From the NCBI GenBank assembly GCA_038450185.1, contig GCA_038450185.1_4765.1: 64,000 bases of DNA. The stretch is one strand, 5' to 3'. Positions 98-62,027 of the stretch are shown here, in pieces. The notes beneath the pieces were generated by a model that saw only the letters and a program-made list of their open reading frames with translations, searched no databases and was not told the DNA's origin. The number at the start of each line of letters is the position of its first letter. Within the stretch, counting starts at the first letter, position 1. The translations under genes were made by a program, and so were the position numbers. The DNA is from a phage.

Positions 98-106
98 TAA
101 GCGAAA

Positions 107-131
107 GGCGGGGATTATCCCCCGCCTTTTT
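107..131. terminator. bidirectional intrinsic terminator hairpin
   Basis: GGCGGGG-loop-CCCCGCC stem flanked by A-run and T-run, between convergent genes. Confidence 0.55.
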
Positions 132-615
132 ATTTTGCTAAATCATTGCAATATTTTAGTGCCTTAGTTTGAAATTCTGCGCTGTTAAGTTCTTCATAAC
201 GGTCATAATCACCGTTTAATGCTGCCTTTCTTGCTTCTTGCTCTATCTGTATGTCAGACATGATAATACAGCGATCCCGTGCTTTCATCTTCTCAAGTTG
301 TATAGACTCTTCTTTCTGCTTGCGCAATTCTTCTTGACGCTTCTTTTCTTCTTGTGCTTTCTCTTCCCGCGCTTCTTTGATTGCATCCTTGAACATCTGC
401 GTTTGTGGTGCTAAACCAACTTTAACGCGATCCACGTCTCGACGTTCCATTTTAGAAATAAAGCACGATTCGATCTGATCATCACTTGCATATGCTGCTT
501 TACATTCACGAAGCAAGAAAACCGGATCTGATTTAGCATTCATCATAGCTTCCATGTTGGCACAACCAGTAAGCATGAATGCAGCCGCAAGACCAATCAG
601 TTTAATCATTTTCAT
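130..615 (-). CDS. lipoprotein with K/E-rich coiled-coil region (161 aa)
   Basis: N-terminal signal peptide with lipobox LTGC; 4-nt start/stop overlap with upstream ORF. Confidence 0.55.
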   Translation of the reverse strand: MKMIKLIGLAAAFMLTGCANMEAMMNAKSDPVFLLRECKAAYASDDQIESCFISKMERRDVDRVKVGLAPQTQMFKDAIKEAREEKAQEEKKRQEELRKQKEESIQLEKMKARDRCIIMSDIQIEQEARKAALNGDYDRYEELNSAEFQTKALKYCNDLAK

Positions 616-1436
616 TTAGTCACCTCACCGAAAATTGTAAATTGTCTACGATTCTCATCGCCGAAAGATTCTACTACGTCGTTTACCTTGACGCAAGTCC
701 CGCGCGGTAAAATTACTTCACATTCGCAAGGGTTCCATGCAATTGACCCAACAACAAAACCTTTATGATCTTTTACGTCAATTACCCATGATACATTACA
801 AGAATGTTGCATCTTTCCGGTCATTGATTCATATCGATTCTCACAATAAAGGCTAGTGCTGTTTGATAGCCATCCTCCAAAGATGATCGGTGTCATGCTG
901 GTCGATACAAAGTTTTTAAAGGTAAACTCCTTATCTTCAATGATGCGCTCTATTGTCTGAATGTCAAGATGTTGACCGCGATAAAGAGTACCGTTTAACT
1001 TTTCGGTTTTATCCATGACGCAATCCATCAAATCGACAATCTCTGATATCTCATCGGTCATGTCTTCTTCCCCTAAGAGAGCACCATTTACCCATTCGTA
1101 TTGTTCAGATACATAATCACAGATTGCATTATATTCTGCTGGGGTTATGTTGTTATGTTTGTAATGTTTGAATACATTATCTCCAAAGTCTTCGGAGTGT
1201 ACTTCATACATCACATTAATGATTTTCTTGACAAATCCATAATCTTGTGTCTCACGCTCAAGGAAGCGGATAACCTTCACATAATCATCAAAGTTAATCT
1301 GATCGCTGATCATCTCAGTGATCATGTAACCATTAATCCCCTCAATGTCATATGTTTCAATATAATTGTCCATACGTTCCATCATTGATTCGCGTGATTC
1401 TTCTGAAAGACGAAAATCCTGTAATTGTTTGAACAT
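612..1436 (-). CDS. ADP-ribosyltransferase-like protein, paralog of the Alt catalytic region
   Basis: R-S-E-type motifs LYRGQ, FVSTS, CECEVILPRG parallel to those in the adjacent 683-aa Alt-like ORF. Confidence 0.55.
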   Translation of the reverse strand: MFKQLQDFRLSEESRESMMERMDNYIETYDIEGINGYMITEMISDQINFDDYVKVIRFLERETQDYGFVKKIINVMYEVHSEDFGDNVFKHYKHNNITPAEYNAICDYVSEQYEWVNGALLGEEDMTDEISEIVDLMDCVMDKTEKLNGTLYRGQHLDIQTIERIIEDKEFTFKNFVSTSMTPIIFGGWLSNSTSLYCENRYESMTGKMQHSCNVSWVIDVKDHKGFVVGSIAWNPCECEVILPRGTCVKVNDVVESFGDENRRQFTIFGEVTK

Positions 1437-1460
1437 TTTAAACCTCCCATATAACAGAAA

Positions 1461-1494
1461 ACGGGGGCTAGTATAAAACTAGTCCCCGTTTGAG
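1461..1494 (-). terminator. hairpin terminator downstream of alt
   Basis: Inverted repeat AAACGGGG..ACTAG/CTAGT..CCCCGTTT followed by T-rich tract on the minus strand. Confidence 0.45.
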
Positions 1495-1515
1495 TCAACC
1501 ATTATTTCTTAAAAA

Positions 1516-3567
1516 TTACATTTTAAATTTATCTGGCATTGCGTCTACAGATACCAGATCAGCGATAAGCTGACGTAGAGTTGCCTTATCTGCTTTCTTA
1601 CGTTCGGTTTTAGCTTCGGTAATAAAGCTGGAGAAAGACAGGTCAGAAGCAGGTTTAACAACACCTTCACGGATGAATGCATCACCGTCCGCGATCATCT
1701 CGCCAGATTCTTGTAATGCTGCCAGTTCATTTTTGTTCATAATATGTGCCTCAATGTAATAAGTTTCTTGTGAATCCGTCGATGCCGTAGCACGAGTTAC
1801 CGTATCAAAGGATAACACAACACCGCGAGGAAGTAAAATCTCGCATTCTTTGTAAGCAAATGCTTTGTTACCTACTGGCAATACAGGGATGTTTTCCGCG
1901 CCAGCAATGGAGAAAGCAACATTAGCGCCACCTTCACCGCGAGAGCCAGCCATAGAATCAACACCAGCAACGGCACTAGCCACGTTTGCATTCCAGCCGC
2001 CAAAAATGTTAGGTGCAAGGGAAGTGCTCACATAGTTTTTAAAGTAAAACGCTTTTTGCTTACGTGCAGTTTCCCACATTTGAGACCGGAAGTCCATACC
2101 ACGATACAGAATAGTACCCGGATCAAGTTTAACACCATAGTTAGAGAAGGCATTATCCAGTGCATCGCACATCTTGACCAATTCTTCTGGATCTGCGATA
2201 CCATCAAATTCTTCCAGCTTACGGTCGGTTAGGAAGTTGTTCATATTGATGTATGCTGCATCCGCATATTCGCTCAACACAAAACCTTCCGCACCTGGCA
2301 GATCAAGATCAATATCTGCCATCATTTCACCCATGTTGCTAGCAATTGCTTCAAACATACCGGAAGCAACATTACGTAGGGCATCGGTTTTAATCTGGGT
2401 GATATGACTACGCAGCATTTCAGCTTTTACATCTGCTGGCATAGACTGGTCTACTCGATCCATTGCCAGGGCGGTGATCTTGTTTTCGAATACTTCCTCG
2501 CTCATGATTTCTTTTAAGCGTTTGATTGATGCTGCGATAACTTCCGCAGACAACGGATCATATTGATCCTGAACTTTTACCAGTTCGCTTACTGCGTATT
2601 TTGCATCGGCTTCGCTTTCAAAAATAGTACGCATGAAACCATAGCGAGTGATAATATCACTTGTCCAGTCATTCAGAGAACGGGCGGTTGAACGTTCTAA
2701 GGCTTGACGGTCAATCAGAGTATTAAACTGTTTCTTAGGTTCGGCTTCGGTGATATCTTCTTCCGGTTTAAGATTAATTTTTTCTGGATGATTCACATAG
2801 TCGCTGTTATAGGTCGCTTGAGTTTTCAGCATTTCTTCTTTAGTCAAACGAGATTTAGCCGCTACGCGTTGTTCCGCTTCCGCGTTTCGTTCTTCTTCTG
2901 ACACAAGACTAGCCGCATACGCCTCATCTTTAGTCAGAGATTCACCAGTAGCCTTAGATACCCAGCGATCACCTAAATCACTTTCTACTTTAGTGAACAA
3001 GGATTCATCAAGTTTAATCCCTTTAATCTTATCAATCGCCATCCCGCGACGCTTGACAACAACTAAAGCGATCTTTTTGCTGGTCATTACTTCCTGCTGG
3101 AATACTTCAAACTTCGGTGTACGACGCACCAAACGCTCTATAACGCGCTTAACCAGTTCGGTCTTACCTTTCATGCGGGATACGTTAAAACGGAACATAA
3201 CAGCGTCTAATTGCGCTTTACGGGCTGTTTCCATAACCACATCAAAAGCACTTGACATAACTGCAATCGGGTTATCGCCTAGACCATTTTTAAGCTGTAC
3301 AATACGACCGCTTTTGTTCATTTCGCACAGTACAACATGTGCGGTCTTGTCACCCATACGAATGATTTTAGGTGTTTTGTTGGTGAAGTTACAAAGACGG
3401 ACAATCACATCTTTATCGCGTGTCTGTACTGCAAAAAGCTGTTTAGGATTCTGCTTAGGCTTTAAGCACTGTACCGGAGCAATACTGCCAAAGTTTTCTT
3501 CCTCTTCCGTCAACAGCCATTTCTCGAAAGATTCAATCATTAGATCGTCGATTTCTAAGTTAAACAT
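1516..3567 (-). CDS. alt: ADP-ribosyltransferase Alt (virion internal protein)
   Basis: 683 aa, close to the recalled T4 Alt length (682 aa); motifs ILYRGMDFRS, YVSTS, KECEILLPRG; position next to the ligase region as in T4. Confidence 0.7.
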   Translation of the reverse strand: MFNLEIDDLMIESFEKWLLTEEEENFGSIAPVQCLKPKQNPKQLFAVQTRDKDVIVRLCNFTNKTPKIIRMGDKTAHVVLCEMNKSGRIVQLKNGLGDNPIAVMSSAFDVVMETARKAQLDAVMFRFNVSRMKGKTELVKRVIERLVRRTPKFEVFQQEVMTSKKIALVVVKRRGMAIDKIKGIKLDESLFTKVESDLGDRWVSKATGESLTKDEAYAASLVSEEERNAEAEQRVAAKSRLTKEEMLKTQATYNSDYVNHPEKINLKPEEDITEAEPKKQFNTLIDRQALERSTARSLNDWTSDIITRYGFMRTIFESEADAKYAVSELVKVQDQYDPLSAEVIAASIKRLKEIMSEEVFENKITALAMDRVDQSMPADVKAEMLRSHITQIKTDALRNVASGMFEAIASNMGEMMADIDLDLPGAEGFVLSEYADAAYINMNNFLTDRKLEEFDGIADPEELVKMCDALDNAFSNYGVKLDPGTILYRGMDFRSQMWETARKQKAFYFKNYVSTSLAPNIFGGWNANVASAVAGVDSMAGSRGEGGANVAFSIAGAENIPVLPVGNKAFAYKECEILLPRGVVLSFDTVTRATASTDSQETYYIEAHIMNKNELAALQESGEMIADGDAFIREGVVKPASDLSFSSFITEAKTERKKADKATLRQLIADLVSVDAMPDKFKM

Positions 3568-3611
3568 TTTATATCCTCTAGTTGATAACCTATAAACCTA
3601 TATTTATGAAA

Positions 3612-3635
3612 ACGGGGCTTAACGCCCCCTTTTTA
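3612..3635 (-). terminator. hairpin terminator
   Basis: GGGGCTTAACGCCCC stem-loop with flanking T-run. Confidence 0.45.
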
Positions 3636-3848: not shown

Positions 3849-3884
3849 TTGATACTCCTTAGTAGTTCGTTTCGGTATGTGTGC

Positions 3885-3913
3885 ATTATAGGGGATCACC
3901 GATCCCCTGTCAA
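3885..3913 (-). promoter_or_regulatory. sigma70-type early promoter, TTGACA-17-TATAAT, palindromic spacer
   Basis: -35 TTGACA and -10 TATAAT read on the minus strand; spacer GGGGATCACCGATCCCC. Confidence 0.6.
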
Positions 3914-3920
3914 CAACTTT

Positions 3921-4475
3921 TTAGTTATTTTTTAATTGTTCATCTTGCAATAATGCAATCACATGCTGGCGATGTTCTTCCGATTGAGGTACACCGAAAA
4001 AGTTTGTTTTGTAGAAATACTCTAATCGGTCTTCTCGTGTGCTCTCTTCCATCATGATCGCGGGTAGTCCGAGATTTCGGAAACGTCGCTTTTCTGCTGG
4101 CGTAAAATCACTGTAATACAACATAGAATCATCATTACAAGCAATGCTAAACTCATCCTTCATAAAGGAGAATATTGCGTTTAAACGCTGTTTACCGTCC
4201 ACGATTTCGATCTCATAGCGAGAGCCATCATCAATCTTAGCCATTGCGATAGCACCAACCGGAAAATCATTAATCAGGTTTTCGATAAACATACGTTTGT
4301 TTTCGGTGTCCCATACTAAAGGACGCTGATAATCTGGGTTCATGTTGATATAGCCATCTTCTAACCATGCTTCGTAAACAGAGATGACAAAGTTTTTAGT
4401 ATTGGTATAGTAACGGCGTTTAGGCGTTAAACGGTTCATGTTATAGTCTCCTGAATGGATCATCACGTAAATCAA
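3921..4475 (-). CDS. DUF262 (ParB-like, GmrS-type) domain protein
   Basis: Motifs PDYQRPLVW and IVDGKQRLNA typical of the DUF262 N-terminal domain of GmrSD-type enzymes; alternative ATG at about 4439 right after the upstream stop. Confidence 0.6.
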   Translation of the reverse strand: MIYVMIHSGDYNMNRLTPKRRYYTNTKNFVISVYEAWLEDGYINMNPDYQRPLVWDTENKRMFIENLINDFPVGAIAMAKIDDGSRYEIEIVDGKQRLNAIFSFMKDEFSIACNDDSMLYYSDFTPAEKRRFRNLGLPAIMMEESTREDRLEYFYKTNFFGVPQSEEHRQHVIALLQDEQLKNN

Positions 4476-4773
4476 TATCTTTTAAGAACTCATCCCATGA
4501 ATGGCGGATATTGTTCTTAATTCTCCAGATGAGCGCAGGGATTGAACGCTCTCCCATCTGGAAGTATGGATCATATGATCCGTATGCCCAATATGCTACT
4601 ACAATTCCACAATCAGAGCAATAGTATTCTATTTCACTTGCTGGCGACCAAAGTCCATCAATATGATCGGTGATCTTGCTTTCGATGTTATGGCTATGGC
4701 AATCAGGGCAACGGATGCAATGACCTTGTTTGTCGTAATTTGACGTTAGAGAATACTTAAACAATCTCATCAT
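4441..4773 (-). CDS. Cys/His-rich zinc-binding protein (110 aa)
   Basis: CxxC..CxH and CxxC clusters; translationally coupled to both neighbours. Confidence 0.45.
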   Translation of the reverse strand: MMRLFKYSLTSNYDKQGHCIRCPDCHSHNIESKITDHIDGLWSPASEIEYYCSDCGIVVAYWAYGSYDPYFQMGERSIPALIWRIKNNIRHSWDEFLKDIDLRDDPFRRL

Positions 4774-5486
4774 AGATCCTTATTGGCTTCAAATACTGCC
4801 TTTGCGAATCCTCGCGGGGTAAGCGACCTGATAGTCTTTGTTCTGGTTCCTTTCCCGCCTAGCTTAGAATGCTGTTTACTGTACCCTTTATTAATCTGCA
4901 AAGGTTTCTTTTCTGGCATTATAAAGCCTTGTCCGGTCCATAAGCAAGTCTTTTTTGGGTACATATCACGGGCGGCAATATACTCAGGAAACGTAGGATG
5001 CTTATCATCTTCCGGCAAATAACCGCCATATTCCCACGGATGGAACATATAATCAGGCTTACGCCACATGCTAGAGATAACGCTTACAGGATTCTCTATC
5101 ATGTAGGGAACTCCTAGCCATTCACCCAAATAAGCGGTTATTTTAGCTGCCCGTACATCATGAACTTGAATCAATGGTCCTTGTCCTCGTTTCTTTCGTT
5201 CAAAGTGCGCAGCGCCACTAACAGCTAAATTGGTGCACGGTGGGAATGCAAAGATAATATCCGGTTTCCCCCATTCAAGGTCCATTGCTCTTTCCAGCCA
5301 ATTCAAATCAATCCATGTGTTTACATAAGTAATGTTTGGATGTTCAAATCGGGTATTATACTTTTTGTATGTGCCGTGATCGCCATCGTCAGCATTAAAG
5401 CAGATCACCTTATGACCTTCTTTAGCCCATTCTAGCCCCATTATCCCCGATCCGTCAAAGTTGCAGAATATTAATTTTTGTTTCAT
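4770..5486 (-). CDS. compact C5-cytosine-methyltransferase-like protein (238 aa)
   Basis: Motif I-like FCNFDGSGIMG, motif IV-like IFAFPPCTNLAVSGA (Pro-Cys), motif VI-like ENPVSV, possible motif IX RSLTPRGFAKA; too short to hold a normal target recognition domain. Confidence 0.5.
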   Translation of the reverse strand: MKQKLIFCNFDGSGIMGLEWAKEGHKVICFNADDGDHGTYKKYNTRFEHPNITYVNTWIDLNWLERAMDLEWGKPDIIFAFPPCTNLAVSGAAHFERKKRGQGPLIQVHDVRAAKITAYLGEWLGVPYMIENPVSVISSMWRKPDYMFHPWEYGGYLPEDDKHPTFPEYIAARDMYPKKTCLWTGQGFIMPEKKPLQINKGYSKQHSKLGGKGTRTKTIRSLTPRGFAKAVFEANKDL

Positions 5487-15253: not shown

Positions 15254-16152
15254 TAAAAGTCTCCGTAGTTAACCTGAAAACATTCTACACCAATTGAGCG
15301 GTACATGTCAACCACTTGATCACGGTCATCTACTGCCAAAACAACATGATATCGCGGTGCAATTTCAGAGAAGAAAATCTCTTTCTTTACTTCATGATCA
15401 GGACGACGATCATTAGTTTCACGTTGAAAGTGATCACTAGGTTCAATACCCTGTTCACGCAACCATTGCAGAGTATCTTCTTCGCAAACATCCTCACGCC
15501 CTGAGCATGTAATGATACGATAGCCATTATCACGATACAGTTTAAGCATTTCGACCACTTGCTGACGTGGTTTATCTTCTTTGACCTTTGTCCAGTCAAA
15601 CGGATGACGACCGCCCTTATCCGCTAATGTTCCATCAATATCAAAGATCACTGCCTTTGGCAGCATAGTATTCGGTTTGTATACTTCTTGACCCATATAT
15701 TCCTGCATCAGATAAAATTGGTTGCGCAAATGAGAAAGTGGAATTGCTTTCTCGCCGCGATAGAAATTACGTTTCTTTAGTGTCTCAAATGATTCATTGA
15801 ACACTTGTTCAGTATACACCGCGTTAAATTCTTTTGCAAGTTCTTTGTAGAATACACGATGTTTTTCTTTCAGGTTAGTATCAGAGATAATGATACTTAA
15901 TCCGCGTGATAGAGTCTCACGAGCAATCATTCTCTGAATAGACTCTACCAGCTTTTCCTTTTCCTTAGTATATTTGTATTTCAAAAGTGAGTCAACACCA
16001 AACAACATAAGACGAAGGTCATCACGATTCACATTACGATAATTACTAAACCTTTTACATGTTTCCATAGCCCATGTAGTTTTACCGGACCCAGAACAAC
16101 CAACGGTTAAAATCACTTCACATTTCGGCATTATTTCTCCTTCGGTTTGCAC
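15253..16152 (-). CDS. pseT: polynucleotide 5'-kinase/3'-phosphatase
   Basis: Walker A GCSGSGKTT and phosphatase motif FDIDGTLA; 299 aa. Confidence 0.85.
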   Translation of the reverse strand: MQTEGEIMPKCEVILTVGCSGSGKTTWAMETCKRFSNYRNVNRDDLRLMLFGVDSLLKYKYTKEKEKLVESIQRMIARETLSRGLSIIISDTNLKEKHRVFYKELAKEFNAVYTEQVFNESFETLKKRNFYRGEKAIPLSHLRNQFYLMQEYMGQEVYKPNTMLPKAVIFDIDGTLADKGGRHPFDWTKVKEDKPRQQVVEMLKLYRDNGYRIITCSGREDVCEEDTLQWLREQGIEPSDHFQRETNDRRPDHEVKKEIFFSEIAPRYHVVLAVDDRDQVVDMYRSIGVECFQVNYGDF

Positions 16153-16586
16153 CGTTCCTCATTAAGTTCTTTTCGATAATAACACATGATCAACTTACTT
16201 TCAAGTGTATATCTCTTAATATCCGCAAGCCAGACTCTGAATTTTTGGGAGTCCTCCCACGACATAGAAACTCTAGGTTTACCGTCTATTGTATCCACTT
16301 TCAGGTCAATGTCAACTTTTTCTATTGGTGCTGGTAGTGGAGGATGTAATTTCGGTTCCTGTGAATAATGGTCCATTGTACACGAAGAAAGAGCAAATAC
16401 AATAGGTACAGCGCAGACATGGATTATGGCGGTCTGAAAATTCTTATGTGCTTTCTTAAACATCCAGTGTATCACGAAAATTGAAAACACCATCAGGATA
16501 ATAATAATGCTTGCACCTATCCCCAGATAATCAACAAGATTAAAATTGTTTATCTGCTCTTGCGTAGACAATATTTCTATGCTCAT
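16131..16586 (-). CDS. putative o-spanin (outer-membrane lipoprotein)
   Basis: Internal signal peptide with lipobox ALSSC; true start probably internal (about 16463); adjacent to pseT as T4 pseT.2. Confidence 0.5.
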   Translation of the reverse strand: MSIEILSTQEQINNFNLVDYLGIGASIIIILMVFSIFVIHWMFKKAHKNFQTAIIHVCAVPIVFALSSCTMDHYSQEPKLHPPLPAPIEKVDIDLKVDTIDGKPRVSMSWEDSQKFRVWLADIKRYTLESKLIMCYYRKELNEERCKPKEK

Positions 16587-39246: not shown

Positions 39247-42162
39247 ATGGCAGATTTAAGCAGAATCCAATTTAAACGTACTAGCACTAAAGGCCGTCGA
39301 CCTGATGCTGGTACGATGAATCCGGGGGAATTGGCAATCAACCTTGCGGATCAATATCTTCTTACTAAAAATGATTCCGGTGCTATTATCAATTTAAGTT
39401 GTCCTCCGGTTTATGACAGCGATGTTACAATGGCGGGTAAGGTTAAAGGAAATAATTATATTTTAAGTAAAACCGCTAATTATTTTGAAGACCAAACCGC
39501 GCGAGATCTTAATTATTTTGGTGCGTTTCGACCGAATAATGCTGATGGTTGGTCTAACTTGATTCTGAACATTCCTCATCCCAGCGGTAAAGCACACGGT
39601 CGCGGGTTTGAATTTGAATATGGTTCTAGTTCCTCTCAGGTTAAAACCTATGGCTTTGATAAGGATGGTAACAAGAGATTCAGCTTTCGCATGTATCACG
39701 AAGGTGATAAACCTACTCCCTCAGAATTGAACGTCTATAGCAAACAAGAAATTGACCGTATGTTTGTTAAGAACGTTAAAATGGTTGTTCCTTCTGGTGG
39801 TGCAACCCGTGGTTATTTTAAAATTGCATCCGCAATGATCCCGCAGAGTGGTCGGATGGCGTTTCTGCGAATCTATGGTGGTAATGGATATAATGTAAAC
39901 TCATATGATCAAGTTGATTTTCTTGAAATTGTTATTCGTAGTGGTAATAATAACCCTAAAGGCGTTAGTATTGCTGCATATCGTCGAAATTCTTTGAACG
40001 TCCATGAAGTATTTGCAATTAATACTTCCGGTGATAACTATGACATTTATGTTAACTATGGTCGCTTCACCGATAACGTTATTGTAGAGTTTGGAAAAAC
40101 TGTTGATGTTGCATTGACTGTTCACGATGTTCCTGAATTTTCGGCGACTAAACCAGAAACCGGAACTAAATTTGATGCTCGTGTTATTACTATGTTCAAC
40201 ACCGAAAACAAAGCCGGAACGTTGATGTTTGATAATAACTCACAAACAACCTATGATATTGTTAGCCTTAATAACGTACCAGACAACAATAAAAAATATA
40301 TGCGTAAATTCCGCAGTCGTGCGGCGGAAACAATATGGCATGAAACTGTTCAAGGTGATGTTTATCGCCTAGCGACAGGGGCTACCGATCAGAAAGAAGT
40401 GTTAAAGATTGTAGGTAGTGATGGTTTATTTGTCAATAGACTTCATCTGCAAGGCAATAACGCGATTCGTATGTGGCGTCCTACTGGTTGTAGTAACTAT
40501 TTTGAATATATGGATCAGCGAGACGGGGCTAATAAACGTCAAGGCTGGTTTGGTTTTGGTTCTACAGAAACCAACGATTTTCAATGGTATAGTGACGAAG
40601 GTAAAAACTTTGTTAAGCTAGAAGCAAGTGGTCAAGTATCTTTAAGCGCAGGTGCAACCAAAATTGTATACACTAATGGTCAATATGTAGCTGCCAATTC
40701 TGATGCATACCGTATGATCTTTGGTAATTATGGTGCATTCTGGCGTAATGACGGCACTAAAGTTTATCTTATGTCTACTGCCGAAAATGATAGATTTGGT
40801 GGCTGGAATGCCTATCGTCCATTCATTTATGATTTAACTTCCGGTAACGTTCAATTAGGCGGTGATGGTAACGAAGATGCATTAACGTTAGAAAGTGCTT
40901 CTCGTGCCGCTCGCTTTAGTAATGACGTTTACATTAAGAAAGGGCTTTTGACTTTCGACGCTGGGCGATTAAATTCCCGCGATTACTTCCGGTTTAACCA
41001 TTGGGGCGATAGCAATAACGGTCGCGATAACATTTTACAGCTTGACGATAGCATAGGTCCACACTTCACCACTGAACGTACTTTAGCAACTGGTTCAATT
41101 AAAACTAAATTCTTCGGTAATTTGGAATCTGCTGGTCAAATTAAATGGGGTAAAGGGACCGCCACATCTACGTTTACTCTACGTGTATGGGGTAGCGATA
41201 GCCGTAAACAAATATTTGAATGCGGCGATGAAAGCGGGTGGCATTGGTATACCCAACGCGCGGGCGGTCCTGATACTTCTGCAATTGATTTTGCCATCAA
41301 TGGTACTGTTAGGCCTCAAGCAATTCACACTGGCGGTAATATCACTATCAACGGTGCTGATATTGAGTTTAAACGCACTGGCAATAAGCACATCTGGTTT
41401 AGAGATCCAAACGGCTTAGAGTTAGGTCTGTTGTACTGCGATGATGCTGGCGTTATGCGTATGCGCGGTAAGAAACAAACCGAAGTCTGGAAATTCGGCG
41501 GTAAGATGATTCAACTTGAAACTGGTACTGTAACCGGTGGCGGTAGTGGTCTGATTCGTGGTAGCGTTGCTGGTGGTAGTTGGACTAGCTGGCGCGATCG
41601 TGCTTCCGGTTTACAGGTCGACTGTCAACAATCAACCGTTTCCGCTCATAACGTATGGAAAGCAACCCATCAAGGTAAATATCATATAGCAGCAATGGGT
41701 GTACACGTTCCTAGTGGTACTATCGGAAATGCTATGGTGCGTATGCACGTACACGATGCAACTTTTGACTTTGGTGCGAGCGGTGACTTCCAGGCAAGCC
41801 GTAATGGTAATTTTAACGATGTTTATATTCGTTCTGATGCTCGCCTTAAAATCAATAAGGAAGAGTATAAGGAGAATGCCACCGATAAAGTTAATCGCTT
41901 GACGGTATACACCTATGACAAGGTTAAATCTTTAACCGACCGTACTGTCATTGCTCATGAAGTTGGTATTATTGCTCAGGATCTTGAAAAAGAATTGCCG
42001 GAAGCCGTAACAACTTCTAAGATCGGCGATCCAGATAATCCAGAAGAGATCTTAACAATTTCTAACTCCGCTGTCAACGCTCTTTTAATTAAGGCGTTTC
42101 AGGAAATGAGCGAAGAACTTAAAGCCGTTAAAGCTGAACTAGCGGAACTTAAAAAGAATTAA
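39247..42162 (+). CDS. 37: long tail fibre distal subunit with C-terminal intramolecular chaperone domain
   Basis: N-terminus MADLSRIQFKRTSTKGRRPDAG..GELAINL matches T4 gp37; C-terminal roughly 108 aa begin at an S-D-A-R-L-K motif. Confidence 0.85.
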   Translation: MADLSRIQFKRTSTKGRRPDAGTMNPGELAINLADQYLLTKNDSGAIINLSCPPVYDSDVTMAGKVKGNNYILSKTANYFEDQTARDLNYFGAFRPNNADGWSNLILNIPHPSGKAHGRGFEFEYGSSSSQVKTYGFDKDGNKRFSFRMYHEGDKPTPSELNVYSKQEIDRMFVKNVKMVVPSGGATRGYFKIASAMIPQSGRMAFLRIYGGNGYNVNSYDQVDFLEIVIRSGNNNPKGVSIAAYRRNSLNVHEVFAINTSGDNYDIYVNYGRFTDNVIVEFGKTVDVALTVHDVPEFSATKPETGTKFDARVITMFNTENKAGTLMFDNNSQTTYDIVSLNNVPDNNKKYMRKFRSRAAETIWHETVQGDVYRLATGATDQKEVLKIVGSDGLFVNRLHLQGNNAIRMWRPTGCSNYFEYMDQRDGANKRQGWFGFGSTETNDFQWYSDEGKNFVKLEASGQVSLSAGATKIVYTNGQYVAANSDAYRMIFGNYGAFWRNDGTKVYLMSTAENDRFGGWNAYRPFIYDLTSGNVQLGGDGNEDALTLESASRAARFSNDVYIKKGLLTFDAGRLNSRDYFRFNHWGDSNNGRDNILQLDDSIGPHFTTERTLATGSIKTKFFGNLESAGQIKWGKGTATSTFTLRVWGSDSRKQIFECGDESGWHWYTQRAGGPDTSAIDFAINGTVRPQAIHTGGNITINGADIEFKRTGNKHIWFRDPNGLELGLLYCDDAGVMRMRGKKQTEVWKFGGKMIQLETGTVTGGGSGLIRGSVAGGSWTSWRDRASGLQVDCQQSTVSAHNVWKATHQGKYHIAAMGVHVPSGTIGNAMVRMHVHDATFDFGASGDFQASRNGNFNDVYIRSDARLKINKEEYKENATDKVNRLTVYTYDKVKSLTDRTVIAHEVGIIAQDLEKELPEAVTTSKIGDPDNPEEILTISNSAVNALLIKAFQEMSEELKAVKAELAELKKN

Positions 42163-46884: not shown

Positions 46885-47085
46885 CTAGTTTTTGTTATTT
46901 TCGTGAAAATTTTTCGTCGCCTCATGTGCTTTTCGCTGGGCTTCTTGTTGTGCTTGCTGGCGTGCTGCCTCTTGCGATGCCATAACAGACGCATTTGCAG
47001 CAGTTACAGCCGCGACCATCGCTGCGGTATTAGCATTTACCGTACATGCACTAGCCAGCAAAGCAATTGCAATCATTTTCTTCAT
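46885..47085 (-). CDS. small secreted or lipoprotein-like protein (66 aa)
   Basis: Signal peptide MKKMIAIALLASACTVNA. Confidence 0.4.
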   Translation of the reverse strand: MKKMIAIALLASACTVNANTAAMVAAVTAANASVMASQEAARQQAQQEAQRKAHEATKNFHENNKN

Positions 47086-59799: not shown

Positions 59800-60149
59800 T
59801 ATCCTAAAATCCTCACCTTGCGAACACAGATAGTATTGAGTTCTCGCCGTACCCGTTCTTTTTCATATTCAGGAATTTTATATTCGATACCATCCCGAAC
59901 AATTTCAGAAGACCGGATTATGCCAAATTTTCGTTTAGGTACAACCTTGTATTTCGGTTCACCCGCCAATAGACTCTCACAATAATCTATCTGATCACAC
60001 ATTGACGCTAACGCAGCATCATGTGTTTCGCAAGTTAGGACGCGACCCTTCGCGTCCACTGAGTATTGAAAGAATCCGTCTTTATCACGATAACATACAG
60101 CAAATACATGCATTATAAACCTACCTTCGCTTTCATCAATTCGATCCAC
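59799..60149 (-). CDS. hypothetical protein
   Basis: ORF between srd and dda; start may be the internal Met. Confidence 0.4.
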   Translation of the reverse strand: MDRIDESEGRFIMHVFAVCYRDKDGFFQYSVDAKGRVLTCETHDAALASMCDQIDYCESLLAGEPKYKVVPKRKFGIIRSSEIVRDGIEYKIPEYEKERVRRELNTICVRKVRILG

Positions 60150-60868
60150 GACGCATCAATCGGAAGCCCGTATTTCACGCGTTCTTTTTGTGCTGGCGTT
60201 AAGTTCTCATACTTAGAAAGAGATTCAATCAAAACGCTGGTATATTTTAGCACGATTTCGGTATTGTTTGCAATAGCCTTAAGTTTTTCTTCTTTCTTGT
60301 TGATTTCGCTAAGGGCTTGCTTGAGATCTGCAATTTTCTGATAACGTTCTTCCATACGTAAGAGAGTATTTTTAATCGCTCGCTCGGCTGCCTCTGCTTT
60401 CTCCGGTTCGTTGTGCTTTTTGTGGCGCTCTATTGCTAATTTCTTTTCTTCGATTGCCATTTCCTGATTTTTGATGCGATTCTCGTTAAGTTCGATCCAC
60501 TCGATGTACTTCGCACGTAGGGCAATTTCATCATCAGAAAGTTTACCGTTAGTTCCTAGTTCCTGGATCTCTTTAAGAGATTCGATAGTGTGATTGCCAC
60601 GGAAAGAATTGTATTTCAGTTTAACCGGAATTACATTGCCATCAACATATCCCAGATTGCAATCAATGCGCTCTAAGGAGAGTCCGTCATCACCTTCACC
60701 GAAAGCCTCACCTGAATAGGCACAATGAGTCTGGCGGTAAATGTTACGCACAGTGACTAAGCTCATAGAGAAGTCTTTGTTGCGACGTGAAGCACCAGCC
60801 ATGATAGAGTTCAGCCGGAAAACAACCAGCGCCAATTCTTCGTTAGATTTAAAAGCAAACAGTTTCAT
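60113..60868 (-). CDS. srd: Srd-like protein
   Basis: 251 aa at the T4-syntenic position between dda and the Mod-like gene; identity is from position and size only. Confidence 0.45.
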   Translation of the reverse strand: MKLFAFKSNEELALVVFRLNSIMAGASRRNKDFSMSLVTVRNIYRQTHCAYSGEAFGEGDDGLSLERIDCNLGYVDGNVIPVKLKYNSFRGNHTIESLKEIQELGTNGKLSDDEIALRAKYIEWIELNENRIKNQEMAIEEKKLAIERHKKHNEPEKAEAAERAIKNTLLRMEERYQKIADLKQALSEINKKEEKLKAIANNTEIVLKYTSVLIESLSKYENLTPAQKERVKYGLPIDASWIELMKAKVGL

Positions 60869-60929: not shown

Positions 60930-61433
60930 TTAAATTAAAGAAAATTTGTAAATCTCTATCAGATCGCCATTACACGCGTAAACTTCCTCGATCTCATCAA
61001 GGATCATGGTCGTCCCTGTCTTGTATATGCACTCGCGCTCATCTGCCAACATAGCATACAAAGACAGTCGAGTAGTCGGATTGTCATACTCTTTAGACAC
61101 CACTCGGTCAATAGCATGTTCGTAATAATTCATGCAAGGCTTGGTAGGTTTTATTGCAATAATCTTTCCTGTTGCATAAACATCGGTTGCAAAGTCCTCT
61201 GCTGTTGATTGCAGTGGCGTAAAGCTCATAGGACGCTCTACAACGAAAGAATCGCCTACAATTAAGGTATCCAGCTTACGGCCTTCTCTTTTGCTCACAC
61301 CGCGATACAAGGCTTCATGATGCACTAACCGCTCAGTCTTTTCAATCAATCCATTAAGGATCGACATATCGATATTTTCTTTAGAGTTCATCACCTCATC
61401 AATGATGTTAAGTTCTTCTGGTGTAAATTGCAT
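60930..61433 (-). CDS. ADP-ribosyltransferase, ModA/ModB-like
   Basis: ALYRGVS, SFTPLQSTAED and ADERECIYKTG motifs parallel to the Alt-like proteins; 167 aa. Confidence 0.5.
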   Translation of the reverse strand: MQFTPEELNIIDEVMNSKENIDMSILNGLIEKTERLVHHEALYRGVSKREGRKLDTLIVGDSFVVERPMSFTPLQSTAEDFATDVYATGKIIAIKPTKPCMNYYEHAIDRVVSKEYDNPTTRLSLYAMLADERECIYKTGTTMILDEIEEVYACNGDLIEIYKFSLI

Positions 61434-61502: not shown

Positions 61503-62027
61503 TTAGTAGCCGCGTTCTTGACGGGCGAAGTTTTCAGCATTTTTCAGATAGTACAGAATAAAGAGTTCTTGAGCGTCAATACCCAGCGGGATCATCTTTG
61601 ACAGAATGAAGTGGATCGCGTCCACAAATTCAAATTTCACTTCAAGCTGATCTTCCGGTGACAGTTCAGAGAATTTACGCGCTCGCGCTTCCCCGTGGTT
61701 CTTTTTCCACATTTTCCAGATTGCACTTGCATCTTTACCATTGGACATTCCACCCAGAGATGTGTAAAGCTCTCGTGTTTCGTCTGCGATAGCGTCATCC
61801 ATCCGTTGCATCCAATCCAGCATTTCACCGCAAGTCTCTAGCTTAGTTGGATTTGGGACCCAATCAAATTTTTCGGATAATGCAACCTGCAAACCAGTTT
61901 GCATTTCGAGCATCACCTGAAACGGATCTTTACCTTCTGCAATCGCGTGATGATATGCGGCGATAGCCGCGTTAATATCTTTTTCGTTAACCAGACCAGC
62001 ACAAGAATTAAATTCTGACATATTCAC
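61503..62027 (-). CDS. putative dCTP pyrophosphatase (gp56-like, MazG-type)
   Basis: 174 aa (T4 gp56 about 171) adjacent to primase; identity is inferred from size and position. Confidence 0.4.
   Translation of the reverse strand: MNMSEFNSCAGLVNEKDINAAIAAYHHAIAEGKDPFQVMLEMQTGLQVALSEKFDWVPNPTKLETCGEMLDWMQRMDDAIADETRELYTSLGGMSNGKDASAIWKMWKKNHGEARARKFSELSPEDQLEVKFEFVDAIHFILSKMIPLGIDAQELFILYYLKNAENFARQERGY

Follow-up and report, generated by a model that had tools for sequence, protein, structure and literature searches.

A predicted trimmed copy of Alt and a lipoprotein with exchanged alleles downstream of alt in a Krischvirus genome

The window analyzed here, a 64,000-nucleotide stretch of phage DNA, comes from a Krischvirus (RB49-like coliphage) and is about 99% identical to published phages. 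Downstream of a full-length alt gene it carries a short Alt-like ADP-ribosyltransferase (ART) gene and a lipoprotein gene (Table 1), and on balance we lean toward an explanation in which the short ART is a trimmed Alt copy made early in infection and the lipoprotein is an independent envelope protein. All three open reading frames of the original prediction were recovered on the minus strand, and their translations contain the catalytic motifs that it had quoted (LYRGQ, FVSTS, and CECEVILPRG in the short ART; ILYRGMDFRS, YVSTS, and KECEILLPRG in Alt). The ART pair is ordinary, and the arrangement has been described before. Over its first 4 kb the window shares 98–99% identity with 59 Krischvirus records, and GenBank records of near-identical published phages already annotate two ADP-ribosyltransferases and a putative lipoprotein, including Sf20_gp54 ([quoted passage not shown]) and W115_160 ("putative lipoprotein"). 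RB49ORF183c was described in 2006 as a paralogous duplication of alt and was listed with T4 alt.-1/alt.-2 among alt duplications (Nolan et al., 2006; PMC1524935). The literature searched yielded no expression, proteomic, or enzymatic data on the short ART–lipoprotein pair.

Table 1. Features of the window discussed in the text.
Feature	Position	Strand	Basis
Bidirectional intrinsic terminator shared by the lipoprotein gene and convergent gene 54	103..130	.	−19.2 kcal/mol, z −4.4
Lipoprotein, 161 aa, phrog_16112	130..615	-	Signal peptide and lipobox, structure model
Exchangeable cassette, mature-protein coding part of the lipoprotein gene	133..560	-	Nucleotide comparison of relatives
Short Alt-like ART, 274 aa (RB49ORF183c, Sf20_gp54)	612..1436	-	PF03496; phrog_15144, E 4e-198
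PeSL-type cassette between alt and the short ART gene	1437..1515	-	Sequence; hairpin MFE −20.8 kcal/mol
alt, full-length Alt homologue, 683 aa	1516..3567	-	phrog_802, E 1e-179; PF03496
CATAAATA, late-promoter-like, 7/8 match to T4-type TATAAATA	3601..3608	-	Sequence; function inferred
Intrinsic terminator-like hairpin GGGGC-GTTAA-GCCCC with T run, upstream of alt	3614..3628	-	Sequence
Single Mod-type ART, 167 aa	60930..61433	-	PHROG 832 "RNA polymerase ADP-ribosylase", E 1e-20

The product of alt comprises an N-terminal Tevenvirinae_ADPRT-type region, an R-S-ExE ART domain (R489, S514-T-S516, E574-x-E576), and a conserved C-terminal tail (...AMPDKFKM). Both PF26846, which matches in the region of Alt residues 1–392, and PF03496 are carried by relatives' Alts that are 97–99% identical to that of the window. 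Although only about 26% identical to T4 Alt, the window protein resembles it in length (T4 Alt has 682 aa), three-part architecture, and R-STS-ExE residues, and both genes adjoin gene 54 and are preceded by a terminator and a late-promoter-like element. The element CATAAATA lies immediately after the terminator and 33 nt upstream of the alt ATG; T4 has a terminator, TATAAATA, 28 nt, and then ATG. Exact copies of TATAAATA occur three times in the window, two of them preceding tail-fibre genes. The GEC-3S record also has a terminator at this site upstream of alt, and one was reported upstream of alt in five of six genomes (Nolan et al., 2006; PMC1524935). As in T4, this first Krischvirus copy would be transcribed late, packaged via its N-terminal domain, and injected.

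The 274-aa protein was proposed to be an Alt-like ART with the catalytic motif pattern of Alt, and the data agree: it scores 59.3 bits against PF03496 (Alt, 37.3 bits; Pfam gathering score, 23.4 bits) and contains R153, S178-T179-S180, and E238-x-E240. The R, STS, and ExE residues are invariant in 7–9 family members, with homologues 41–84% identical. Whether the protein had lost the NAD-binding fold was the decisive question attached to the original prediction; the structure model (pLDDT 83.8, pTM 0.83) retains it, with Foldseek matches to Vis, Certhrax, C3bot, CDTa, and iota Ia at probability 1.0, and the best PDB matches are arginine-specific or C3-like ARTs. The fold and NAD-binding motifs are held in common with C3, VIP2, iota, CDTa, and Vis (PF03496, R-S-E mono-ARTs), as is the ExE ARTT motif typical of arginine-specific members. 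However, these proteins are secreted toxins with 15–20% sequence identity to the short ART, which is a predicted cytoplasmic phage enzyme and is further set off by a conserved FGGW...N.TSLYCE insertion behind the STS motif, modelled at low confidence.

By BLASTP, similarity between the short ART and Alt is confined to residues 151–257, whereas profile–profile alignment with hhalign equates residues 64–272 with Alt 393–609 (probability 99.9%, E 9e-35). The N-terminal region had been called unrelated to Alt, which was overstated: residues 64 onward align, and it is the first 63 or so, a helical extension, that are without an Alt counterpart. Alt residues 1–392 and the conserved C-terminal ...MPxKF tail are missing. 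We consider the protein very likely to be an Alt paralogue with predicted activity, apparently a maintained mono-ADP-ribosyltransferase of the arginine type (R-S-ExE).

The locus may be the remains of an old tandem alt duplication common to T4-type phages and resolved differently in each lineage, with the second copy here trimmed to the catalytic domain and given a new helical leader. RB49ORF183c, T4 alt.-1/alt.-2, and 44RRORF187c/188c all lie directly downstream of alt and before gene 54, with a duplication origin; the T4 GenBank record describes alt.-1/-2 as duplicating the first part of alt, and a Tequatrovirus-like contig has a near-complete second alt copy split into 273 and 415 aa. Unlike T4, where only small N-terminal remnants survive (61 and 67 aa), Krischviruses retain an intact catalytic part on which purifying selection acts. 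It might be argued from its truncation, and from the decay that such duplicates can undergo in T4, that the 274-aa frame is itself a functionless, decaying remnant. Selection and fold data contradict this highly improbable reading: the catalytic residues are invariant across diverged homologues, the ART fold is confidently predicted, dN/dS is 0.00–0.07 with up to 40 synonymous changes, and the gene is found in 59 of 59 Krischvirus records.

The region between alt and the short ART gene fits the definition of a PeSL given by Arbiol et al. (2010; PMC2839356), who demonstrated promoter and terminator activities experimentally for other PeSLs. Behind the alt stop come an AT-rich stretch, promoter boxes (−35 TTGACT, 1498–1493; 17-nt spacer; −10 TATACT, 1475–1470), a polyG/polyC stem-loop (1459–1491) that overlaps the −10 box, a T run, a Shine–Dalgarno sequence (GGGAGG), and the ATG, as in the RB49/phi1 PeSL cassettes with their AT-rich stretch, sigma70 boxes, stem-loop over the −10 box, Shine–Dalgarno sequence, and start (PMC2839356). 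The GEC-3S record annotates a promoter at this intergenic spot. Because it has a sigma70 PeSL cassette of its own, the short ART is probably made early and not packaged. T4 Alt is a packaged RNA-polymerase ADP-ribosyltransferase; the short ART has its catalytic domain without the N-terminal 392 residues and the C-terminal tail, and with an early-type promoter. It would thus be synthesized inside the infected cell instead of being delivered by the virion, and host ADP-ribosylation would come in a second wave or reach a different set of targets.

Packaging of the short paralogue had also been suggested, which would make it a second virion-delivered enzyme, carried in the head and injected with the DNA beside Alt, perhaps by means of an N-terminal capsid-targeting-like leader cut by the prohead protease. 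This is an unlikely outcome in our view, although the gene is an alt paralogue directly downstream of alt, where late read-through transcription is possible, and family members conserve the first ~63 residues. The N-terminus, MFKQLQDFRLSE followed by E, has an L-x-E motif such as the T4 prohead protease cuts during head maturation. This motif is not at a fixed position among homologues, however, and so short a sequence could arise by chance. Packaging is disfavored because the short ART is missing the N-terminal part and tail found in every full-length Alt and in the longer paralogues P0007 and P0008, and because the gene is preceded not by a terminator and late promoter but by the PeSL, with its near-consensus sigma70 promoter and a terminator hairpin separating it from alt. 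Two observations weigh against the proposed timing of expression: the late-promoter match before alt extends to only 7/8 positions, and transcripts running on from alt could supply the downstream genes late as well.

The third gene encodes a genuine lipoprotein. The predicted lipobox LTGC was confirmed in its signal peptide, MKMIKLIGLAAAFMLTGC, with Cys18 as the lipidation site and Ala at +2. The lipobox and Cys38, Cys51, Cys116, and Cys156 are invariant in all true family members. The mature protein is modelled as an all-helical rod (pLDDT 86.5) with a 62-residue helix (72–133) that includes the K/E-rich stretch noted earlier, at residues about 80–115. It would be exported, lipidated, and sorted to the outer membrane (Ala +2), with periplasmic disulfide bonds and a rod roughly 9 nm in length. 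No homology or fold similarity was detected to Cor, Llp, Sp, Imm, or any characterized protein; a phrog_1119 match (E 0.0075) was rejected as covering the signal peptide only. The 4-nt overlap with the ART gene is real, the ART stop and lipoprotein start sharing ATGA at 612–615, and the lipoprotein Shine–Dalgarno sequence (GAGGTGA) is embedded in the final ART codons. The lipoprotein gene has no promoter of its own and would be co-transcribed with the short ART gene. The GEC-3S record annotates the terminator shared with gene 54 on both strands.

Among near-identical phages the mature lipoprotein exists as three alleles that are 29–47% identical (A in 51 records, B1 in 2, and B2 in 6; each of the 59 records carries one), while the ARTs of the carriers are 96–100% and their Alts 97–99% identical. 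In relatives L009 and L012, nucleotide identity is ~100% down to ~560, 30–55% across ~560–135, and 92–100% thereafter, which places the breakpoints at the end of the signal-peptide coding part and at the terminator. Unlike the RB49/phi1 PeSL cassettes, this swap is not bounded by PeSLs, its left breakpoint lying inside the gene. The exchange is confined to this precisely bounded segment and does not follow the ART, gp54, or the gp37 tip. Three cleanly swapped versions among such similar phages hint at an arms-race role, and their deep divergence and independent exchange suggest an envelope protein that acts on its own and is subject to diversifying or frequency-dependent selection.

The original prediction regarded the lipoprotein as a coupled partner of the ART. 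This holds for the operon, for translation, and for the pairing in all diverged relatives. It does not hold for the mature proteins, since one is swapped while the other stays nearly constant, which argues against a direct protein partnership; independent action of the lipoprotein is likely. A two-component module, in which the lipoprotein serves the short ART as a dedicated factor for immunity, regulation, or export, for example, would account for several regularities. The lipoprotein follows the short ART in every relative examined, even at 24–31% lipoprotein identity, and the order 271–282-aa ART, lipoprotein, gp54 recurs in L004, L009, L011, L012, L014, and L016 (in L015, at a contig edge, what precedes the lipoprotein is a partial ART, a 63-aa C-terminal fragment). 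At the junction the two genes always overlap or come close to doing so, the Shine–Dalgarno sequence is encoded by the conserved ART C-terminus, no lipoprotein was met without a short ART among the relatives examined, and L006 and L008, longer Alt-like paralogues with the C-terminal tail, have no lipoprotein. Such a module is nevertheless quite improbable. The predicted compartments differ, with no signal peptide in the ART and a lipobox and four conserved cysteines in the lipoprotein, and the alleles have been exchanged without compensatory change in the ART. Moreover, all loci belong to one syntenic lineage (alt-ART-lipoprotein-gp54), so adjacency is explicable by inheritance and dependence on the ART promoter and Shine–Dalgarno sequence, and tight overlaps are common in this genome (4-nt overlaps in 8 of 73 same-strand neighbour pairs by a crude gene call). 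Strict adjacency across lineages at 24–45% identity could still reflect a functional link.

As to what an independent lipoprotein might do, we tentatively propose a predicted role in exclusion or envelope defence, with early superinfection exclusion or envelope protection following the logic of T5 Llp and T1/phi80 Cor. Llp of T5 and Cor of T1/phi80/N15, expressed early or from prophages, are outer-membrane lipoproteins that block FhuA; the window protein is likewise a small phage lipoprotein with an outer-membrane-type sorting signal and probably early expression, and its allelic diversity suggests an interaction under conflict. It differs in having no sequence or fold similarity to them, in its larger size, helical rod, and two probable disulfides, and in an allele that is independent of the gp37 tip. 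A somewhat weaker possibility is that it acts at the envelope in another way, through lysis timing or inhibition, outer-membrane stabilization, or countering an envelope-associated host defence. The same localization features would serve this reading, as would the allele's failure to track the gp37 tip and the absence of detected homology to known exclusion proteins, but three deeply diverged alleles are more typical of proteins facing an evolving partner than of housekeeping envelope functions, and the phage is already equipped with T4-type spanins. Against the exclusion role, the allele does not vary with the gp37 tip, as it might if the protein masked a receptor in keeping with the adhesin of its own phage. 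An o-spanin or unimolecular spanin could share the outer-membrane-type lipidation and periplasmic cysteines; this identity is effectively refuted by a PseT.2-type o-spanin at 16131–16463, adjoining pseT (phrog_812, E 1e-32), and by protein features unlike those of a spanin, namely a helical, 161-aa chain that is not short and Pro-rich, without a C-terminal transmembrane segment or an adjacent i-spanin gene. RB49, JSE, and Phi1 have been placed in the T4 PseT.3 and PseT.2 spanin families (PMC6139136).

T4 ModA and ModB are early, non-packaged enzymes, and the short ART is proposed to be likewise small, made after infection, and expressed from an early promoter. It is, however, non-homologous to them beyond the ART core and belongs to the Alt branch. 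The true Mod homologue is the third ART, located between srd (60113–60868) and gene 56 (61503–62027); its predicted Mod type is supported by alignment with T4 ModA and ModB, in which R44, S70, and E132-x-E134 are invariant. One mod gene is present in the window, compared with two in T4.

The first 4 kb of the window are shared, at 98–99% identity, with 59 records of Krischvirus, a phage genus that includes RB49, Phi1, JSE, GEC-3S and Shigella phage Sf20. Gene order in the window is that of T4, with genes 29, 48 and 54 converging on alt, and the long tail-fibre genes, holin t, dda, srd, a mod gene, gene 56 and primase 61 lie farther along. Three ORFs encoding 683, 274 and 161 aa were recovered on the minus strand exactly where the original prediction had placed them, and the ADP-ribosyltransferase (ART) motifs that it quoted are present in the translations. 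The stop codon of the 274-aa ORF (hereafter, the short ART) and the start codon of the 161-aa ORF overlap by 4 nt (ATGA), as had been claimed.

Coordinates of the ART genes, the lipoprotein gene and their predicted regulatory signals in the window
Feature	Coordinates	Strand	Basis
Alt (683 aa)	1516-3567	-	PF03496 (Pfam ADPrib_exo_Tox), 37.3 bits (gathering score 23.4)
Short ART (274 aa)	612-1436	-	PF03496, 59.3 bits (gathering score 23.4) over residues 82-266
Lipoprotein (161 aa)	130-615	-	End-to-end match to phrog_16112, a family of unknown function
Mod-type ART (167 aa)	60930-61433	-	phrog_832 'RNA polymerase ADP-ribosylase', E 1e-20
Terminator hairpin upstream of alt	3614-3628	-	Hairpin prediction
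Late-promoter-like motif CATAAATA	3601-3608	-	7/8 match; after the terminator, 33 nt 5' of the alt ATG
PeSL cassette between alt and short ART	1437-1515	-	AT-rich stretch, TTGACT-17-TATACT, G/C-tract stem-loop over the -10, T run, SD, ATG
Bidirectional terminator	103-130	both	Strong; closes the short ART-lipoprotein unit

Residues 16–683 of Alt match phrog_802 ('Alt-like RNA polymerase ADP-ribosyltransferase', E 1e-179), and proteins 97–99% identical to it carry both PF26846 and PF03496. Alt contains an N-terminal Tevenvirinae_ADPRT domain, an ART domain and a conserved C-terminal tail (...MPDKFKM) that aligns with the tail of T4 Alt (...MPYKFVQG), and its gene lies by gene 54 as in T4. The third enzyme had been predicted to be of the ModA/ModB type, which the alignment with T4 ModA and ModB bears out (25–27% identity, with R44, S70 and E132-x-E134 invariant). 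Similar to the T4 mod genes, its ORF is located between srd (phrog_1400) and gene 56 (a gp56-like ORF).

The short ART matches phrog_15144 in PHROGs ('ADP-ribosyltransferase', E 4e-198), and a profile search of the PDB returned Lmo0066, C3, Vip2, iota and others. Its residues R153, S178-T179-S180 and E238-x-E240 are invariant in 7–9 homologues, down to identities of 21–41%. The NAD-binding fold is intact in the AlphaFold2 model (pLDDT 83.8, pTM 0.83), for which Foldseek searches against the PDB retrieved Vis, Certhrax, C3bot/C3bot2, CDTa and iota Ia with a probability of 1.0 and a target-normalised TM of 0.6–0.67 for single-domain targets. Its profile, motifs and predicted fold (a helical N-lobe and a beta-sandwich NAD pocket) place the short ART among the R-S-E mono-ADP-ribosyltransferases. 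An ExE in the ARTT motif points to an arginine acceptor, and the short ART is thus predicted to be arginine-specific.

BLASTP aligned the short ART with Alt at 37% identity over 109 residues only, and the comparison of a short-ART profile (n = 7) with an Alt profile (n = 6) in hhalign aligned residues 64–272 to Alt residues 393–609 with 99.9% probability. The N-terminal region had been described as unrelated to that of Alt; this holds for the first ~63 residues, which have no Alt counterpart, but is overstated for the homologous remainder. The alignment further revealed that the short ART lacks Alt residues 1–392 and the C-terminal tail (...MPxKF...), which is kept in every full-length Alt as well as in P0007 and P0008, two longer Alt-like paralogues. 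Judged by these comparisons, the short ART is a paralogue of Alt and not its orthologue. Its Sf20 counterpart, Sf20_gp54, is annotated in GenBank as 'ADP ribosyltransferase; distinct from T4 Alt and Sf20_gp55; lacks C-terminus'.

We also considered that the short ART might be a pseudogene or remnant. Between the short ART and its close relatives there are 10–40 synonymous and 0–10 non-synonymous differences (dN/dS 0.00–0.07). On this evidence, together with the fold, this reading was rejected, and the short ART is a maintained gene. Literature searches found nothing specific on a characterised short Alt paralogue and no Krischvirus virion proteome. A segment following the STS motif (residues 183–208, window about 813–890; P-I-I-F-G-G-W-x-x-N-S-T-S-L-Y-C-E-N) ranks with the best-conserved stretches of the short ART family and of the Alt family, and contains the sole low-confidence part of the short ART model (pLDDT below 50 at residues 185–195). 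It may be a loop peculiar to the Alt branch that serves in substrate recognition or is of the phosphate-nicotinamide type.

RB49ORF183c (the short ART of RB49), 44RRORF188c and T4 alt.-1/alt.-2 have been described as apparent paralogues that arose by duplication of alt, and 44RRORF187c as a full-length alt duplicate (Nolan et al., 2006; PMC1524935). According to the T4 record, alt.-1 and alt.-2 jointly represent the initial part of alt, duplicated long ago. In a Tequatrovirus-like metagenomic contig (L006 1086–5248; also in L007), a near-complete second alt copy was identified in the same slot, split into a 273-aa ORF for the N-terminal domain and a 415-aa ORF for the ART and C-tail that overlap by 4 nt. 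At this place T4 has only the alt.-1/alt.-2 remnants, and the alt.-3 of the contig is almost identical to that of T4. The duplicates in RB49, 44RR, T4 and this contig indicate that T4-type phages share a tandem alt duplicate in the alt–gene 54 interval, which has variously decayed, with the Krischviruses retaining its catalytic part. In the Sf20 record (L002 4436–4871), alt is annotated with 589 aa only, a 435-nt unannotated gap precedes the short ART, and there are about 73 extra bases compared with the window. These differences suggest that the 3' portion of alt in this record has undergone an indel or frameshift.

The layout upstream of alt mirrors that in T4, where a terminator is followed by the canonical late promoter TATAAATA, 28 nt and the ATG. 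The terminator and the late-promoter-like motif in the window suggest that alt is expressed late and that Alt is packaged as in T4. By sequence comparison, the region between alt and the short ART has every part of the published definition of a promoter-early stem-loop (PeSL), and a promoter is annotated at the equivalent spot in GEC-3S. PeSLs have been described for RB49 and phi1, and promoter and terminator activities were shown for other copies (PMC2839356). Together with the closing terminator, the PeSL cassette points to the short ART and the lipoprotein as an early two-gene transcription unit. The short ART would thus be made early in the infected cell, where it would ADP-ribosylate host, and possibly phage, proteins on arginine and complement both Mod and the Alt that is injected.

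The 161-aa ORF has the features of a bacterial-type lipoprotein, including a positively charged n-region, a hydrophobic h-region and a lipobox ([LVI][ASTVI][GAS]C) conserved in homologues. Its signal is of the textbook type (MKMIK / LIGLAAAFM / LTGC), and the residue at +2 is Ala. G17 and C18 do not vary, and every true family member has a lipobox (LTGC, INGC, LVGC, LFGC or MTGC). According to the Lol rule of E. coli, Ala at +2 predicts sorting to the outer membrane. An Ala or Ser in this position, in place of the Asp that signals Lol avoidance, along with four invariant periplasmic Cys, suggests that the protein is lipidated and sorted to the outer membrane. These cysteines (C38, C51, C116 and C156), kept in all family members, are compatible with a disulfide-bonded periplasmic protein, the two predicted bonds being C38–C51 and C116–C156. 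The predicted structure is all-helical (pLDDT 86.5), with a 62-residue helix at residues 72–133, the middle of which is a K/E-rich, indel-prone segment. The family is very small, with about 10 clusters in a set of 1.84 billion representatives; library, profile and fold searches revealed no functional relative, and a literature search on the lipoprotein found nothing specific. W115_160 is annotated in GenBank as 'putative lipoprotein', and the UniRef name of the KFS-EC protein is 'Lipoprotein'.

Two assignments of the lipoprotein to known phage proteins were rejected. Against an o-spanin, the lipoprotein has no homology to o-spanin families and its gene no adjoining i-spanin, a PseT.2-type o-spanin is found at 16131–16463, adjoining pseT (phrog_812), and RB49, JSE and Phi1 are listed in T4 spanin families (PMC6139136). 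T4 alt.-3 is not a counterpart either because it is unrelated and has no signal peptide.

In six diverged loci (L004, L009, L011, L012, L014 and L016), a lipoprotein gene stands after an ART of 271–282 aa and ahead of gene 54, an order that holds even where the lipoprotein is only 24–31% identical to that of the window. At the edge of a further contig (L015), it follows a partial 63-aa C-terminal fragment of the ART. The two genes overlap or lie within 1 nt of each other in all examined loci, and the coding sequence of the conserved C-terminus of the short ART (...F-x-E-V-x, codons GAG GTx) doubles as the Shine-Dalgarno sequence of the lipoprotein in the window (616–640), L004, L011, L014, L015 and L016. 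This dual constraint may help explain why both genes stay together. The longer Alt-like paralogues of L006 and L008 have the C-tail and no lipoprotein.

Coupling of the lipoprotein to the short ART, as originally predicted, might be taken to imply a physical partnership of the two proteins. Conserved adjacency, the overlap and the Shine-Dalgarno sequence within the ART support coupling of the genes, but several observations speak against the partnership. The 4-nt overlap was discounted as evidence, such overlaps being common in the window (8 of 73 neighbour pairs), and the two proteins have different predicted compartments. In Whisky (L011), L009 and L012, Alt is 97–99% and the short ART 96–100% identical to those of the window, whereas the lipoprotein is 33–38% identical behind a signal peptide that is equal letter for letter. 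A direct interaction is hard to reconcile with an ART that remains unchanged while its neighbour is replaced by a 30%-identical protein. The lipoprotein would be co-expressed with the short ART, exported and anchored in the outer membrane, and would act alone at the envelope.

The exchange of lipoprotein alleles has sharp boundaries: nucleotide identity is about 100% up to position ~560, where the coding region of the signal peptide ends, falls to 30–55% across the mature-protein part, and is back to 92–100% at the terminator in L009 and L012. Three allele classes, one per record, were identified in the 59 Krischvirus records, namely A (51 records, including the window), B1 (Whisky and JK32) and B2 (011D4, AV108, E26, PHB13, G37-3 and PTE-Eco09), counts that are not independent because the records include RefSeq/GenBank duplicates. 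B1 and B2 are 46–47% identical to each other and both about 30% identical to A. This trimorphism suggests that the lipoprotein is in conflict either with a host system or with other phages.

No co-variation was seen between the lipoprotein allele and the gp37 tip, whose identity to the window is 61–90% within A, 62% and 82% in B1, and 75–85% in B2; no gp38 adhesin, to which host range in RB49-like phages has been attributed (Efimov et al., 2022), was found between gp37 and t in the window, and the comparison is thus one of gp37 without gp38. The distal part of gp37 (window 40960–42159, plus strand) is the receptor-recognising end and is highly variable among Krischviruses; its best match in the phage collection is 89.6%, compared with about 99% to several records for the rest of the genome. 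A diverged gp54 (88%) is confined to non-A carriers, four of the eight (Whisky, JK32, AV108 and PTE-Eco09), which might be read as a functional link. Given that gp54 is 99–100% identical in four B2 carriers, we favor a linked import whose donor was more distant, with later recombination.

Predicted localization, inferred timing and the allele pattern tentatively suggest that the lipoprotein could act in superinfection exclusion, similar to Llp of T5 and Cor of T1/phi80, an analogy of function since homology to Cor or Llp was not found in either sequence or structure. Somewhat more doubtful is the broader proposal that the short ART and the lipoprotein form a conserved early module of Krischvirus-like phages in which the lipoprotein is a strain-specific envelope determinant and A, B1 and B2 are 'exclusion types', a cassette swapped precisely while the signal peptide stays fixed, representing a T-even-group counterpart of T5 Llp/T1 Cor with an unrelated helical-rod fold. 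If true, exclusion types would set compatibility groups among near-identical therapeutic coliphages, with a bearing on phage-cocktail design, and the lipoprotein would add a new fold to the few phage exclusion lipoproteins. Three deeply diverged alleles swapped behind an identical signal peptide in widely isolated therapy phages point to a gene in active conflict, which could matter if it sets such groups.

The tandem Alt-type ARTs with a Mod-type ART are a known, annotated arrangement in a well-sampled genus; describing two Alt-type and one Mod-type enzyme is correct but ordinary, repeats genome papers and GenBank, and alone changes nothing. The homology limits of the short ART, the PeSL-driven unit, the strict ART–lipoprotein synteny in diverged lineages and the three-allele cassette appear to be unreported in the searchable literature, and are modest leads, not a new kind of system. 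The extra Alt-domain ART of Krischviruses is catalytically intact, under selection and probably expressed early. With this enzyme beside Alt and Mod, RB49-like phages lend themselves naturally to studying what the additional ART modifies and for what purpose T4-type phages have more than one.

Several minor features were also noted in the compared genomes. A 180-nt ORFan (W115_156 / BN201_0191), located between a 70-aa ORF and a DUF262/GmrSD_N-like ORF in most Krischviruses, is absent from the window (3850–3920, compared with L001 6845–7166 and L003 5345–5666) and also from Sf20, one RB49 record, Cognac and KFS-EC. This indel is flanked by consensus sigma70 PeSL-type promoters (TTGACA-17-TATAAT at 3913–3885), boundaries as expected for PeSL-mediated ORFan shuffling. 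Upstream of alt, the DUF262/GmrSD_N-like ORF (phrog_1583; 3921–4475, minus strand) and an ORF that the Sf20 record labels a putative SAM-dependent methyltransferase (4770–5486, minus strand) may be related to DNA modification or anti-restriction. The gp29 tape-measure/hub gene of Whisky (L011 7017–8695) is called as two ORFs of 178 and 370 aa. Finally, a 66-aa ORF with no PHROG match (46885–47085, minus strand) carries a lipobox (MKKMIAIALLASAC...) and is a candidate second small lipoprotein.
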